From the NCBI GenBank assembly GCA_028695445.1, contig JAQVIV010000002.1, positions 1-59,882 on the forward strand: DNA of 59,882 nucleotides, written 5' to 3'. A program made the translations under genes and the position numbers. Source of the stretch: Candidatus Shapirobacteria bacterium. GTDB lineage: Bacteria > Patescibacteriota > Microgenomatia > 0-14-0-10-38-17. The stretch's first letter is position 1. Each line of letters starts with the position of its first letter. The notes beneath the pieces were generated by a model that had not been told where the DNA came from, searched no databases, and worked only from the letters and a program-made list of their open reading frames with translations. Below, one piece after another: positions 985 to 14,490 of the stretch.

Positions 985-1143
985 TAAACATTGCTAAATT
1001 GTTACATTGTTAGATTGTTTTTTTAAGTTTATTGTTAAAAACAAAGACGTTGTCAACAATTCAGCAATTAAACAATATAACAATGTTTTCAAATCATTAA
1101 AAATTGACTAAAAATTAAGAATTTAAAATTAGAAATTATCTTT
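985..1143. repeat. mosaic AT-rich repeat (C-type arms plus module A) ending at the rplC start codon
   Basis: cattgctaaattgttacattgttagattg ... caattcagcaattaaacaatataacaatg, then aaatcattaaaaattgactaaaaattaagaatttaaaattagaaatt. Confidence 0.7.
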
Positions 1144-1782
1144 ATGCTTACCGGTTTAATTGGTAAAAAAATCGCCATGGGTCAGGATTTTACCGAGGAT
1201 GGTAAAGTAGTGCCCTTAACCATTGTTGAGCTTGGTCCTTGCCGGGTTCTTCAGACGAAAACGGAAGACTCTGATGGCTATCGGGCCGTAAAATTGGCTT
1301 TTGGTCAAGGTAAGGGCAAGTATAACAAAAAACCGACTCTTGGCGAAGCAAAAAAGGCCAAGTCTGATTTAGCGCCGGAAAAAATAACCGAAATTCGGGG
1401 TGATTTTGGTGATGATATTAAAGTTGGTCAAGAGATAACCTTAGACCAGGTTTTTTCTGAGGGTGATAGGGTAAAAGCTACCGGAACCTCAAAGGGGAGG
1501 GGTTTTGCCGGAGTAATGAAAAGATGGGGATTTCATGGTGGGCCGGCCACTCATGGCCAATCGGATCGACTGCGGGCTCCCGGCTCAATCGGCCAAGGCA
1601 CCGACCTGGGCAGAGTTCATAAAGGTAAAAAAATGCCCGGCCATTTTGGGGTTGATAAGGTAACGGTAAAAAATTTAACTGTTTTTAAAATTGATAAAGA
1701 AAATAATCGTCTTTATTTGACCGGGGCAGTGCCTGGAGCAAGAGGGGGATATTTGGTGGTGGAGAAGATAAACAGCAAGTAA
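1144..1782 (+). CDS. rplC: 50S ribosomal protein L3
   Basis: GTSKGRGFAGVMKRWGFHGGPATHGQSDRLRAPGSIG motif; position in operon. Confidence 0.97.
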   Translation: MLTGLIGKKIAMGQDFTEDGKVVPLTIVELGPCRVLQTKTEDSDGYRAVKLAFGQGKGKYNKKPTLGEAKKAKSDLAPEKITEIRGDFGDDIKVGQEITLDQVFSEGDRVKATGTSKGRGFAGVMKRWGFHGGPATHGQSDRLRAPGSIGQGTDLGRVHKGKKMPGHFGVDKVTVKNLTVFKIDKENNRLYLTGAVPGARGGYLVVEKINSK

Positions 1783-1915
1783 ATTAATCTAATTATTCTA
1801 ATGAAAACCCAACAACCAAGCCCCAAAAAGAACAACAAAAATGATTTTGGGATTTGGGTTTTAGAAATTGGAAGTTTATTAGAGCAATTAGAACAATTAG
1901 GTTAATTAGATTAAT
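1783..1915. repeat. module B element bounded by 13-bp perfect terminal inverted repeats
   Basis: attaatctaatta (1783-1795) pairs with taattagattaat (1903-1915). Inner pairing is gaaaacccaa/ttgggtttt. Positions 1789-1821 are identical to 14336-14368. The element starts at the base after the rplC stop. Confidence 0.7.
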
Positions 1916-1924
1916 TTTAATTAT

Positions 1925-2548
1925 ATGAAAGTTCCAATTTACGATAAAAACGGTAAAAAGACTGAGAAGTCAATCCTTTTGCCCAAAAGTATCTTTGAGG
2001 CCAAGGTTAATTTACCATTAATGGCCCAGGCTGTTAAGGTTTTTTTGGCCAATCAGCGAACTGCTTTTTCTAAAGCCAAAACCAGGTCAGAAGTTACCGG
2101 TTCGACTAAAAAGATTTGGCGCCAGAAGGGCACTGGTCGAGCCCGGCATGGGGATAATAAGGCGCCGATTTTTGTTGGTGGCGGCAAAGCACACGGCCCA
2201 ACCGGAGTAAAAAAGCGCCTTTCCTTGTCTAAAAAAATGAGACAAGCGGCCTTGAAATCGGCCTTATCAGCCAAAGCCGGTGAGGGAGCAATCTTTGTTG
2301 TTGACGGTTTGGTAAAAATTACCCCCAAAACAAAACAAGGCGTAAAGCTTATTGACAATTTGGGGGTTGCTGATAAAAAAGCCACCCTGTATTTATCAGA
2401 AAAAAATGATAATATTACTCGGGCTTTTGGCAATTTGCCTAATGTTAGTATTAATTTGGCCAATAAACTAAATGCTTACCAGGCCTTATCGTCAGGAAGA
2501 ATAATTTTTACCAAAGAAGCGATTGAGGTTTTGAAAAAAAGACTATGA
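1925..2548 (+). CDS. rplD: 50S ribosomal protein L4
   Basis: WRQKGTGRARHGD..APIFVGGGKAHGP motif. Confidence 0.97.
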   Translation: MKVPIYDKNGKKTEKSILLPKSIFEAKVNLPLMAQAVKVFLANQRTAFSKAKTRSEVTGSTKKIWRQKGTGRARHGDNKAPIFVGGGKAHGPTGVKKRLSLSKKMRQAALKSALSAKAGEGAIFVVDGLVKITPKTKQGVKLIDNLGVADKKATLYLSEKNDNITRAFGNLPNVSINLANKLNAYQALSSGRIIFTKEAIEVLKKRL

Positions 2549-2832
2549 AATTGGCCGATGTTATCAAGAAACCATTAGTAAGCGAAAAGTCGATGGGAGC
2601 GGTGGAAGATGGCCGTTATACTTTTGTTGTTGATCGAGCCGCTTCTAAAAATCAAATTAAAAAGGCAGTGGAGACGATCTTCGGTGTTAGTGTTATCAGG
2701 GTTAGAACAACAATTTTGAAGAGAAAGCAAAAAAGGCTGTCTAATAATCGGAGAATGCTTCAGCCTGCACCGGTAAAAAAAGCGATTGTTGAGCTGAAAA
2801 AAGGCGAAAAATTAGATATTTATGAAAGCTGA
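2545..2832 (+). CDS. rplW: 50S ribosomal protein L23
   Basis: 4-nt overlap with rplD. ...PLVSEKSM......YTFVVD..A.K.QIK.AVE..F.V.V..V.T... pattern. Confidence 0.95.
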   Translation: MKLADVIKKPLVSEKSMGAVEDGRYTFVVDRAASKNQIKKAVETIFGVSVIRVRTTILKRKQKRLSNNRRMLQPAPVKKAIVELKKGEKLDIYES

Positions 2833-3033
2833 TTAGAAATATAGATATTCAGAAATATAGCAATATAGATAAATTTTTAATTTTCAAACAAATTCCAAGT
2901 TACAAATGAATAAGGAGGAATTTTTGAAGTAGCGGAGTTTACTCCGCGCCATTAAAAAGAGGCGCGAACTAAAGTTCGCTACTCCGGAAAAACAAAAAAA
3001 TTAAGGTTCGCTATTCTCAAAAAAGAAGTTTTT
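2833..3033. repeat. mosaic repeat (F stutter, E-like words, GC core variant)
   Basis: ttagaaatatagatattcagaaatatagcaatatagat. GC core at 2926-2988 has hairpins gcggagt-tt-actccgc and gcgaac-taaa-gttcgc. Confidence 0.65.
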
Positions 3034-3813
3034 ATGAAAAATATTAGAAAGGGTTTAACCAGAGCGATTAAAAAGAAAGCCGGAAGATCGAGTGGCCGAG
3101 TGGCGGTCCGTCATCAGGGCGGTGGTGAGAAGCGCCGAGTTAGAGAAATCGATTGGAAAAGAAACAAGTTTAATGTTCCTGGAAAAGTTGAAAACATTGA
3201 ATATGCTCCAGCTCGAAGTGCTAATGTAGCCTTGGTTTTGTATAAGGATGGGGAAAGGCGCTATATTTTAGCCACTAAAGGCATGGAGCCAGGTTTTTCT
3301 GTTATGAGCGGTGATAAGGCGCCAATTAAGGAGGGAAGCGCTACTACGTTAGCTAAAATTCCGGTAGGAATGCCAATACATTCTATTGAACTAAAGCCTG
3401 GTAGGGGTGGGCAGTTAGTTAGAGGAGCAGGGACGATGGCTGTTATTACCGCCAAAGAAGGAAGCATGGCTCAGGTTCGTTTGCCTTCAGGGGAATTGCG
3501 AAAAATTTCTCTTTCTTGTCAGGCAACCATTGGCCAAGTTGGCAACGAGGCGCATAATTTACAAAAAATGACTAAGGCTGGTCAAAAAAGACATAAAGGA
3601 ATTCGGCCAACAGTTCGAGGAGTTGCTCAGCACCCCGGTTCTCATCCTCATGGTGGTGGTGAAGGCCGGTCCGGCATTGGCATGCCCTCTCCTAAGACTC
3701 CTTGGGGCAAGAAGACCTTGGGTAAAAAGACCAGAAAGAGAACAAAATATAGCGACAAAAATATTATTTCCAGAAGAAAAACTAAAGCCCAAAAAAGAGA
3801 TAAACAGAAATAA
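3034..3813 (+). CDS. rplB: 50S ribosomal protein L2 (short N-terminus, Lys-rich C-tail)
   Basis: [41 protein letters not shown] motifs. Confidence 0.95.
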
Positions 3814-13300: not shown

Positions 13301-13330
13301 AGGACTTGGTTTTTAAATAATTAGTAATTA

Positions 13331-13546
13331 ATGGTTAAGGACAAGAATCAAGAAATAGACGGCAAGGTAACGGAATCTCTGCCCAACGCCATGTTTCGAG
13401 TAGAATTAGATGATGGACGAAAGGTTTTGACCCAGTTGGCGGGAAAAATGAGGCTTTATCATATCAAGGTTATCCCTGGCGATCGAGTCAGGGTTGAGAT
13501 GACCCCCTACGATGATGAGCGAGGACGAATTACCTACCGCTACTAA
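13331..13546 (+). CDS. infA: translation initiation factor IF-1
   Basis: [14 protein letters not shown]......L.GKMR...I...PGD.V.VE..PYD...GRI.YR. Confidence 0.97.
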
Positions 13547-13664
13547 TTATAATTTTTAATTTTTAATTTTTAATTTCTAGTGAATTACTAATGATTAAAT
13601 TTTTAAAAATTTATTAAATAAAAATTGAATAAGAATTTAAAATTAAGAATTAAGAATTAAAGCT
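13547..13664. repeat. foldback element (inverted A plus A), paralog of 13779-13899
   Basis: Shares ttaatttctag(t/c)gaattactaatgattaaatttttaaaaattta and aaaaattgaataagaatttaaaattaagaattaa with the next spacer. Confidence 0.75.
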
Positions 13665-13778
13665 ATGAAAGTTCAGTCGTCAATTAAAAAACGATGTCGA
13701 GACTGTAAAATTGTTCGGCGGCGGGGTAAATTATATATCACTTGTAAAAATCCAAAGCACAAACAAAGGCAAGGATGA
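13665..13778 (+). CDS. rpmJ: 50S ribosomal protein L36 (zinc form)
   Basis: Not in the track (37 aa). My translation is [37 protein letters not shown], ending at TGA 13776-13778. Confidence 0.93.
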
Positions 13779-13899
13779 GAAGAAAATTTCTAATTTCTAA
13801 TTCTTAATTTCTAGCGAATTACTAATGATTAAATTTTTAAAAATTTAGACAATAAAAATTGAATAAGAATTTAAAATTAAGAATTAAAAATTAATTACT
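13779..13899. repeat. foldback element (inverted A plus A)
   Basis: Outer 13-bp perfect pairing of taattcttaattt (13798-13810) with aaattaagaatta (13874-13886). Central 16-nt palindrome aaatttttaaaaattt (13831-13846). Confidence 0.75.
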
Positions 13900-14313
13900 A
13901 TGCCTAGAATAGTCGGCGTTAATGTTCCAGATGGAGAGAAGGTTGATTTGGCTTTGACCAGAATTTATGGCATTGGCCAGTCTAATGTTCATCTGGTTTT
14001 GGAAAAATCTAAGGTTGGAGCAAGTAAAAGGGCCAAAGATTTAACTGAAGAAGAAATCGCCTCTTTAAATCAGGTGTTAGGGGAGATGAAGGTTGAGGGC
14101 GACCTTCGAGAAGAGATTAGGAACGACATTGAGAGACTGAAGCAAATTGGTACTTATCGAGGCCGAAGGCACAATGCTAATTTGCCGGCTCGAGGTCAGC
14201 GAACCAGAACTAATGCGCGGACCAAGCGTGGTTCCAGACAAACAGTTGGCGCTCTTAAGAAGGAAGTCTTTACTAAATTAGAAGAGCAAACTAAGAAAGA
14301 AGAGAAAAAATAA
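13900..14313 (+). CDS. rpsM: 30S ribosomal protein S13
   Basis: PRI.GV..P......V.L..IYGIG, IG.YRG.RH...LP.RGQRT.TNART. Confidence 0.97.
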   Translation: MPRIVGVNVPDGEKVDLALTRIYGIGQSNVHLVLEKSKVGASKRAKDLTEEEIASLNQVLGEMKVEGDLREEIRNDIERLKQIGTYRGRRHNANLPARGQRTRTNARTKRGSRQTVGALKKEVFTKLEEQTKKEEKK

Positions 14314-14490
14314 CAAGTAAAAATTATTCTAATTTCTAATTATTCTAATGAAAACCCAACAACCAAGCACCAAAGAGAACAATAAAAATAATTTTGGAAT
14401 TTGGGTTTTGGGATTTAGGAATTCATTAGAGTAATCCGCCACAGGCGGACAGGTTAGAACAATTAGATCAATTAGGTTAATTTCATAGAT
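14314..14490. repeat. module B element with nested GC hairpin
   Basis: Positions 14336-14368 are identical to 1789-1821. Contains ttgggttttgggattt. The ccgccacaggcgg hairpin (14436-14448) is inserted within the right arm. Confidence 0.7.

Follow-up and report, generated by a model that had tools for sequence, protein, structure and literature searches.

Repetitive extragenic palindromic (REP) sequences are an established class of bacterial repeats, and the tags GTAG and CGTC define two of their superfamilies (Di Nocera et al., 2013, PMC3733652). Members of the GTAG superfamily have an unpaired GTAG at one end of a palindrome with a GC-rich stem of 5-13 bp and a loop of 2-20 nt; they are further multicopy within a genome and associated with a REP-associated tyrosine (RAYT, Y1) transposase (PMC3733652). 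In the CGTC superfamily the tag is CGTC (or TGTC/CCTC), the stem opens with two A·T pairs and is 8-9 bp long, and the loop contains 4-5 nt (PMC3733652). REP dimers nested in long AT-rich target palindromes have been described, as have mosaic intergenic clusters (PMC3733652). Here we analyse a stretch of 59,882 nucleotides, below called the window (contig JAQVIV010000002.1 of assembly GCA_028695445.1), from a Candidatus Shapirobacteria bacterium belonging to the candidate phyla radiation (CPR), in which the ribosomal-protein superoperon is interrupted by repeat-filled spacers. We consider it rather likely that these spacers are mosaics resembling bacterial interspersed mosaic elements (BIMEs), where REP-type GC-rich hairpins are nested in AT-rich palindromes made of word arrays, and that they have spread by insertion and ectopic recombination and been tolerated at junctions lacking Shine-Dalgarno (SD) sequences. 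The kind of repeat, REP/BIME, is already known, while no prior description of such elements in the CPR was found in literature searches.

The Operon and Its Spacers

Few bacterial loci are as compact and conserved as the ribosomal-protein superoperons, and few bacterial genomes are as small as those of the CPR. The S3 protein of the window, encoded by the open reading frame (ORF) 5162-5797, is 100% identical to a protein from a metagenome-assembled genome of Candidatus Shapirobacteria (Microgenomates, Patescibacteria/CPR). The operon has the canonical order rplC-rplD-rplW-rplB-rpsS-rplV-rpsC-rplP-rpmC-rpsQ-rplN-rplX-rplE-rpsZ, followed by rpsH-rplF-rplR-rpsE-rplO-secY-adk-infA-rpmJ-rpsM-rpsK-rpsD-rpoA-rplQ. 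Gene identities were assigned by ORF calling and by tblastn against Pfam-annotated relatives, and the statistics on gene context given below rest on ORF-based gene calls. The sample comprises this 60-kb window of one genome and 8-kb loci of relatives, which are referred to by L numbers.

An initial annotation of the window had listed 14 occupied junctions between rplC and rpsK, amounting to about 2.3 kb of spacer DNA. All 14 were recovered when the lengths were recomputed (142, 201, 340, 260, 252, 61, 127, 54, 126, 225, 93, 118, 120-121, and 177 nt), and so was the total. The count was nevertheless short by one, as a 15th occupied junction with C and A modules is found upstream of rplC (988-1143), and adk-infA, with 57 nt, is an exception to the claim that the remaining junctions are all below 25 nt. 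The occupied spacers of the operon range from 54 to 340 nt. Modules are present at 15 of 28 junctions in the rplC-rplQ operon, but only two of the other 38 junctions of the window have any (Fisher p = 1.1e-5).

Architecture of the Modules

The spacers are composed of a small vocabulary of recurring modules, here called A to F, as had been noted initially. Module A is present in 12 copies in the window and absent from shuffled sequences, and B, C, and D also recur where no copies are expected by chance. All 12 A copies are on the plus strand and end a few nt 5' of a start codon. The statement that A is always the last module before the start codon is thus true of every copy, but four occupied junctions, rplC-rplD, rplW-rplB, rplN-rplX, and rpsM-rpsK, have no A. 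Similarly, the modules had been described as stutters of short words; word arrays are indeed seen, but A, B, and C are also inverted repeats. Two layers can be distinguished, the first being AT-rich quasi-palindromes made of arrays of 7-, 8-, or 9-nt words, and the second GC-rich REP-type stem-loops nested within these. Five of the A copies are preceded by their own reverse complement, rc(A), creating palindromes of ~90-125 nt. B is a long AT-rich hairpin whose arms are arrays of 9-nt words, and C is built likewise from 8-nt words. The ten elements tested all fold better than shuffled sequences, with z-scores from -1.9 to -6.4.

The GC-rich layer contains two types of tagged hairpins. GTAG-tagged GTAGCGnnnTTTAnnnCG units of the form GTAGCG-nnn-TTTA-nnn-CG are stem-loops nested in the AT-rich palindromes, sited inside the arms of C and in the rplW-rplB spacer. 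The window has four of them, at 2929 (+), 2982 (-), 4527 (-), and 5882 (-), all within spacers, compared to 1.6 expected window-wide. Their stems are 5-7 bp long and their loops contain 4-5 nt (TTTA, TTCA, or TTACA). The same GTAGCG...CG consensus is found in L002, L121, L071, and L047, with one or two units per short locus. Module D is the 3' end of an element of about 100-110 nt, bounded by the inverted repeats CGTCATYCTGA...TCAGGATGACG. The D stem begins with AT, has 5+6 bp with an internal mismatch and a loop of 4 nt, and is tagged on the minus strand by CGTC at 11154-11157 and by TGTC at 977-980. All GTAG and D units of the window are located at co-directional junctions. The mosaic layout is seen both in the inverted GTAG pair at 2929/2982 and in the GC cores found inside C arms that are then followed by A, and nested insertions are also present in L123 and L006. 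The initial annotation had recognised no described family here; the GC cores do, however, carry the GTAG tag, and D the CGTC/TGTC tag, of known REP superfamilies (PMC3733652), and the layout is BIME-like.

Turnover Among Relatives

Repeats that were collapsed or chimerically joined during metagenome assembly might give a similar picture. Such repeats do break short-read assemblies: the Logan contig L001 (SRR27676592) ends within repeats, many D-type loci are terminal on their contigs, and N gaps are found beside elements in L113 and L027. L001, which was assembled independently, is nevertheless an exact substring of the window (4600-5873). The same module vocabulary is found in several relatives from independent metagenome projects, spacers of the same kind are present in at least six relatives, and gene-adjacent, junction-specific sequence is conserved by orthology. 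Because of the exact match to L001 and the shared vocabulary, an artefact is extremely improbable; the spacers are real.

A junction-by-junction table and further loci show that occupancy is not conserved among relatives. The rplV-rpsC junction, 22 nt long in the window, has 35 nt in L004, 161 nt in L002, and 282 nt in L003, and in L121, the closest relative (S3 94%), it is a mosaic of 317 nt. Most junctions are compact in L004 and L122 and also in L005, which is more distantly related. Sixteen window spacers gave any match in blastn, and for 11 of these the best match was a different junction in the same genome; another two matched a non-orthologous junction of a different genome best, and three an orthologous one (infA-rpmJ, adk-infA, and rpsD-rpoA). 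The copies at rplF-rplR and secD-secF share a stretch of 68 nt that is 100% identical, even though they are 38 kb apart. L002 and L123 have a coding identity of 88%, and between them whole spacer cassettes have been replaced while the A module at the start codon is unchanged. One A module of L123 has received an insertion of 34 nt that carries a GC hairpin, and the window and L003 differ by insertions and deletions of whole modules. Two adjacent junctions contain the same element of ~160 nt, the copies of which have evolved in concert: their identity amounts to 98% inside L002, but to 93-94% across genomes. The core of the rplO-secY spacer of the window is the same element as the core of the rplN-rplX spacer of L123, and the C core of the window also occurs at a non-ribosomal junction in L071, another contig of the L002 genome.

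The suggestion that small non-autonomous elements have colonised intercistronic sites was thus broadly right, given the variable occupancy, paralogs that are closer than orthologs, and the nested GC hairpins. Their confinement to ribosomal operons does not hold, as the same mosaics are found at non-ribosomal junctions of a relative's genome.

Growth in situ, by slippage and inverted duplication at each junction and with neither transfer nor function, would fit the stutter architecture with its periods of 7, 8, and 9 nt. Heptad words are also already present 5' of starts in compact relatives, and the intergenic DNA of the CPR is generally rich in (A5T2)n-type arrays. The complex GC cores are, however, 90-100% identical across junctions and genomes, making an independent origin impossible; moreover, nested insertions occur, and conservation is far above that of neutral sites. 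As the only process at work in situ growth therefore seems quite improbable. It is largely refuted for the GC cores and the near-identical paralogous copies, but could still explain the stutters.

One locus with these modules carries an unexpected label. In L047 (CAZUWK010000059.1, uncultured Gammaproteobacteria) the start of rplF is of the Shapirobacteria type, and modules A, B, and C are present, a GTAG unit among them. Mis-binning of this contig is probable, in keeping with repeats fragmenting assemblies of the marker-gene block.

Distribution Outside the Operon

Two large collections were scanned, species-representative genomes for the core of A and metagenomes for D, and the resulting counts are lower bounds. 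Among the matches listed, the A core is found at more than 115 loci, mostly in Patescibacteria of many classes. Flanking heptads and a T-rich partner arm are common to the A-core loci listed, beyond the pattern searched for, and, again among those listed, the start codon is most often found 40-44 nt past the start of the pattern. Downstream of the listed loci are ordinary housekeeping genes with a wide variety of functions. Of the CPR-wide matches listed between co-directional genes, 28 have the core in the sense and 21 in the antisense orientation. The antisense cases are exact reverse-complement arrangements, and at some junctions a T-rich arm alone precedes the ATG. An orientation tied to the replication strand was rejected, as GC skew merely tracks gene direction. 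Arrays of the (A5T2)n type are generally common in the CPR A-core loci, and the A "family" is therefore in part a trend in base composition common to the intergenic DNA of the CPR. In 2.9 million viral contigs the sole match to the A core is at 9633-9655 of L244 (IMGVR_UViG_3300042691_024126).

The D-type inverted repeat was found at no fewer than 120 metagenome loci, mostly on contigs of 55-67% GC, with the common consensus GTCATCCTGAGCGAAGCGAAGGATC...GATCCTTCGCTTCGCTCAGGATGAC. These repeats, like the A-type palindromes in many CPR classes, show that the elements are not lineage-specific. The listed D copies are mostly intergenic, 27 lying between co-directional, 15 between convergent, and three between divergent genes. 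GTCAT is preceded by T in 78 of the 101 copies listed and by C in 17 of them, and target-site duplications were seen at 0 of 101 copies for k = 3 and at one of 101 for k = 4, equal to the offset control.

No mobilising gene could be linked to the repeats in a small sample of inverted arm pairs, from L011, L028, L146, and L192; between these arms are housekeeping genes, HipBA, or ORFs without a Pfam match, and no transposases. An autonomous element between the inverted A-arm pairs of L011 and L028 was thus rejected, since only housekeeping genes are found there, and no RAYT was found beside paired D copies, where HipBA or ORFs without a Pfam match are encoded instead. A link between D repeats and genes for the PF05635 "23S intervening sequence protein" was likewise rejected (two of the 120 loci listed). 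TIGR arrays are long tandem arrays of 36-nt units next to a Tas gene encoding a Nop domain (PMC12045711). This identity was also dismissed, as the repeats have no 36-nt period and no Nop-domain protein was found among the window proteins scanned.

A PF05635-like gene encoding a four-helix bundle is found at nine of 115 listed A-type loci, adjacent to the palindrome in about five or six of them. An A-type palindrome directly abuts such a gene in L028 (6105-6487), L037, L068, L082, and L113 (5335-5710). L113 also has a tandem 109-nt duplication (4912-5297) of a gene end and palindrome arm beside an assembly gap.

RNA-Level, Promoter, and Initiation Signals

If the spacers formed a host-selected intercistronic RNA system, the hairpins would serve in processing by RNase III or RNase Y, in stability, or in coupling, A would be an initiation enhancer, and the system would set the stoichiometry of the ribosomal proteins in a host that makes hardly any use of SD sequences. 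Such a role would be in line with conservation at orthologous sites far above neutral, with the strong enrichment in the operon, and with palindromes that, both in the window and CPR-wide, begin right behind one gene's stop codon and end a few nt short of the following start. No pairing is predicted for solo A modules, and an RNase Y-like protein with KH and HD domains is encoded in the window. The spacers also tend to close end-to-end, with an enclosed fraction of 0.83 compared to 0.67 in shuffled sequences and 12 of 14 exceeding their own shuffle mean, but this is a modest trend only.

An RNA-level signature was, on the other hand, not detected. Isolated stem mismatches on the sense strand are G·U in 13, A·C in 19, and other pairs in 44 cases, so that no RNA-type bias or sense-strand G·U excess is seen in this small sample. 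Covariation, for which the few copies give an underpowered test, is essentially absent, with double changes in one of 24 pairs for rc(A)-A (alifold term -0.4) and in two of 27 pairs for the C hairpin (alifold term 0); the repeated words allow several pairing registers in the consensus folding. None of the modules, including canonical D copies, gave a relevant match in Rfam 15 at gathering score or at E ≤ 1, and permissive matches to microRNAs and long non-coding RNAs were dismissed as spurious. Furthermore, the A core occurs in both orientations CPR-wide, the T-rich arm can stand alone before an ATG, junction occupancy varies among close relatives, and compact relatives do without the elements. 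Nothing marks the stems as sense-strand RNA helices. The dedicated intercistronic RNA system offered as the second possibility in the initial annotation thus finds no support in covariation, G·U pairs, Rfam, or the orientation of A, and it appears unlikely.

Module A and its relatives could alternatively act as internal promoters or as sites recognised by a DNA-binding regulator, providing transcription control for each cistron. The TTGAAT core resembles a -35 hexamer and keeps a fixed distance of ~40 nt to the start codon downstream, independence of orientation would be in line with a site read at the DNA level, and there is one real internal promoter in a spacer, TGTTATAAT at 4028. However, no -10 element is found 16-19 nt from TTGAAT, and a sigma-70 scan displayed no enrichment (40 vs 33±6) and made no plus-strand call on the TTGAAT core of the A copies. 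The promoters evident in the genome are of the type TGnTATAAT, and antisense copies between co-directional genes would be senseless as promoters. This explanation is accordingly given very little probability.

The extended -10 motif TGTTATAAT has five sites in the window, 4028-4036, 19141, 40657, 53570, and 26874 (-), all of them intergenic and correctly oriented, and they precede rpsS, the tRNA-Tyr gene, the RNase P RNA gene, and two ORFs. The rplB-rpsS site has conserved counterparts in both L003 and L004, and an internal promoter within the ribosomal operon is therefore implied. Some promoters are located ~6-10 nt from the start codon (53570 and 34256), which suggests leaderless or near-leaderless mRNAs.

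SD-like motifs are scarce, being found at two of 28 operon genes and six of 38 others (eight of 66 starts in the window). Orthologs in compact relatives also lack an SD and already have the same AAAAATT-type words upstream of the start. As the heptad words sit at starts in compact relatives, module A looks like an expanded SD-less leader rather than a foreign element. That A should be a substitute for lost SDs was rejected, since SDs are rare window-wide and the compact relatives have none either. A strong SD is found at a few genes, for instance an HU-like gene at 33059 and a mini-ORF at 809 in the operon leader.

Origin and Persistence of the Mosaics

The BIME-like mosaics have two layers. 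In one, AT-rich quasi-palindromes (A/rc(A), the arms of B and C, and the E and F stutters) would have grown from word arrays, the A-rich words at the start codon being the ordinary SD-less leader of the lineage in expanded form. In the other, GTAG hairpins and the CGTC/TGTC-tagged D hairpins, the latter from a very widespread family, are nested in these palindromes. Their spread could be explained by REP-type insertion of hairpin DNA, combined with ectopic recombination or gene conversion between junctions that have end modules in common. Recombination of this kind would keep the module order and orientation within the operon. An insert that folds on itself would presumably keep the stop and start codons near each other and leave an A-rich, SD-free leader, and this might be the reason why the elements persist. 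As part of the mRNA they probably behave as REP, ERIC, or Correia hairpins do and would, by analogy, influence segmental mRNA stability or processing and translational coupling.

Several observations weigh against this reading. Neither a RAYT nor any other transposase was found among the window proteins scanned or beside the paired copies. The 12 A copies of the window all face a start codon, a local orientation bias. The shared modules are overall 90-100% identical, and the infA-rpmJ palindrome has 95.6% identity with its L002 ortholog, compared to an identity of 51% between the window and L002 at four-fold degenerate sites. The D half-copy and C arms 5' of rplC are similarly ~90-95% identical to L003, against 44% at four-fold sites, and in this C element the loop has diverged from L003 while the arms stayed ~90% conserved. 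Conservation this far above neutral implies that the modules are either constrained, at the level of the host or of the element, or continually renewed through conversion or re-insertion. It is not explained by a purely selfish or neutral view alone.

It is also conceivable, but doubtful, that the A/rc(A) heptad palindrome is a host-selected element found CPR-wide in either orientation, which bridges stop to start, loops out the spacer, and offers an A-rich leader to the ribosome. If so, it would serve SD-poor bacteria in general as a means to couple translation or punctuate mRNAs, and the REP-type GC hairpins would be secondary passengers.

Arrangement of the Individual Spacers

All spacers below are read on the plus strand. 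Upstream of rplC, a D half-copy (940-977) forms the GC hairpin GGATCCTTCTCCGCC-GGCT-GGCGGATCAGGATGAC with the TGTC tag on the minus strand, and a nearly identical ortholog is found in L003. It is followed by a C-type AT-rich hairpin (988-1086) with 8-nt word arms at 988-1020 and 1055-1086 and no GC core (z = -3.3), and by an A module (1089-1140) immediately 5' of the rplC start at 1144. The rplC-rplD spacer (1783-1924) is a B element with 9-nt word arms around a AAAACCCAA...TTGGGTTTT core (z = -3.9), displaying 93% identity over 75 nt with the copy at rpsM-rpsK. An F stutter (2833-2875) and the inverted GTAG pair (2929 +, 2982 -) make up the rplW-rplB spacer (2833-3033), whose core has z = -5.3. 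The longest spacer, rplB-rpsS (3814-4153), combines a B-type hairpin (3880-4010), the promoter TGTTATAAT (4028-4036), a C-arm fragment (4063-4087), and A (4096-4147), with z = -4.2. In rpsS-rplV (4427-4686) an E stutter (4427-4475) precedes C arms with a GTAG GC core (4475-4626) and A (4629-4678), and this spacer is 90% identical over 183-213 nt to rpsC-rplP (5798-6049), where C arms and a GC core with a GTAG unit (5830-5981) are again followed by A (5990-6041). The 22-nt rplV-rpsC junction between them contains the remnant ACATTGCTAAATT (5140-5152), equal to the first 13 nt of the 5' arm of C.

Further downstream, rplN-rplX (7296-7356) is an F-type atatagaa stutter, rpsZ-rpsH (8432-8558) has an aaaac-word stutter and A (8506-8552), and rpsH-rplF (8961-9014) a solo A (8963-9008). 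The rplF-rplR spacer (9570-9695) is an rc(A)-loop-A palindrome (z = -2.6). In rplO-secY (11006-11230) an E stutter (~11016-11046) is followed by the D-type element GTCATTTTGA...TCAGGATGACG (11050-11160) and A (11171-11221). Palindromes of the rc(A)-A type fill secY-adk (12521-12613, a short one), infA-rpmJ (13547-13664, z = -3.0), and rpmJ-rpsM (13780-13899), while rpsM-rpsK (14314-14490) consists of a B element with the nested GC hairpin TCCGCC-ACA-GGCGGA at 14436-14450 (z = -6.4). Outside the ribosomal operon, secD-secF (47937-48027) is occupied by an rc(A)-A palindrome, and a run of 8-nt words like those of the C 3' arm (44255-44305), preceded by a GC hairpin, is found upstream of a DUF4446 gene. 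This run and hairpin end a region of 733 nt without a long ORF (43582-44314).

Other Features of the Window

The operon is preceded by a leader (727-927) upstream of rplC, with the promoter TTGATA-N17-TAGAAT including a TG extension (727-755), a 16-codon mini-ORF MTLLARKFSQKLEFIG (809-859) preceded by the only strong SD of the operon, and a GC hairpin with a T-run as terminator (894-927). The same architecture, with mini-ORFs of 15-16 codons, fills the rpsJ-rplC spacer of L003, L004, and L122, and in L005 the promoter is kept while the alignment downstream is poor. Judged from this layout the leader looks like a leader-peptide or attenuator control region; it has no match in Rfam. In L003, L004, L005, and L122 rplC follows rpoC-rpsL-rpsG-fusA-tuf-rpsJ, while in the window the leader is instead preceded by an opposite-strand gene (250-630) for a bAvd-like PF05635 protein. 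This difference in upstream gene order suggests a rearrangement breakpoint just 5' of the leader promoter.

Two further repeats were noted. A perfect direct repeat of 99 nt is found at 19228-19326 and 19358-19456, the first copy overlapping the 3' end of the tRNA-Tyr gene, and it could go back to an integrative element that left an att-like duplication, or to an error of assembly. GC-rich palindromes of 43 nt, GGTCCGAAGCTATCCGACCCCWGGGGTCGGATAGCTTCGGACC, flank a nitroreductase gene at 35372-35414 and 36059-36101, and a similar palindrome is present in L071 at ~6100-6160. They are another REP-like family, distinct from those of the operon.

Comparison With Known Repeat Systems

About half of the junctions of this operon contain nested palindromic repeats with turnover among close relatives, which is unusual for a compact operon. 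Even the ribosomal superoperon hence seems permissive to repeat proliferation where initiation is SD-independent. The repeats also break assemblies within the marker-gene block that is used for CPR phylogeny and binning, and with the A type an AT-rich palindrome conserved well above neutral can be flagged CPR-wide.

The enterobacterial repetitive intergenic consensus (ERIC) sequences, or intergenic repeat units (IRU), of enterobacteria and Yersinia are imperfect palindromes of ~70-130 nt found in transcribed intergenic regions, intercistronic ones included, in either orientation and with variable presence. The elements studied here share these traits of structure, site, orientation, and variability, while their sequence is unrelated, and they form a nested multi-family mosaic where ERIC has a single consensus. 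The BOX elements of Streptococcus pneumoniae are intergenic, consist of modules in the fixed order boxA-boxB-boxC, and are predicted to fold. Modularity and fixed order are common to both, but sequence and host are unrelated and BOX has no word-array palindromes with nested REPs. RNA-level functions have been shown for the RNase III sites of phage T7 early mRNA and for the REP-stabilised segments of the E. coli malEFG mRNA. The likeness to these is a functional analogy only, in that intercistronic hairpins punctuate or stabilise an mRNA, and no RNA-level signature was detected in the spacers of the window.

Correia elements (also called NEMIS) in Neisseria are co-transcribed with their neighbours, form mRNA hairpins, and display presence/absence polymorphism. 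The D-type element resembles them, and miniature inverted-repeat transposable elements (MITEs) in general, in its terminal inverted repeats CGTCATYCTGA...TCAGGATGACG. MITEs duplicate their target site and have autonomous partners with matching ends (for a summary of their traits see PMC3733652 and PMC3184786), while D shows no duplication, and no partner was found in the small sample.

The closest likeness is to REP/BIME repeats. As in these, short GC-rich stem-loops have a GTAG or CGTC/TGTC tag at one end and often form inverted pairs, and they are located at co-directional or convergent sites, make no target-site duplication, build mosaic clusters, and vary between strains. They are also sometimes nested in longer AT-rich "target" palindromes and plausibly transcribed. 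The setting differs, as the repeats are here found inside the ribosomal-protein superoperon of a CPR genome of roughly the 1-Mb class, with only four GTAG units in 60 kb and no RAYT among the window proteins scanned. Stems of 8-9 bp have been described for CGTC REPs, a length that the D stem exceeds, and AT-rich word-array palindromes, not REPs, dominate by length. With this the GTAG superfamily of REPs, and more tentatively the CGTC superfamily, would extend to the Patescibacteria.

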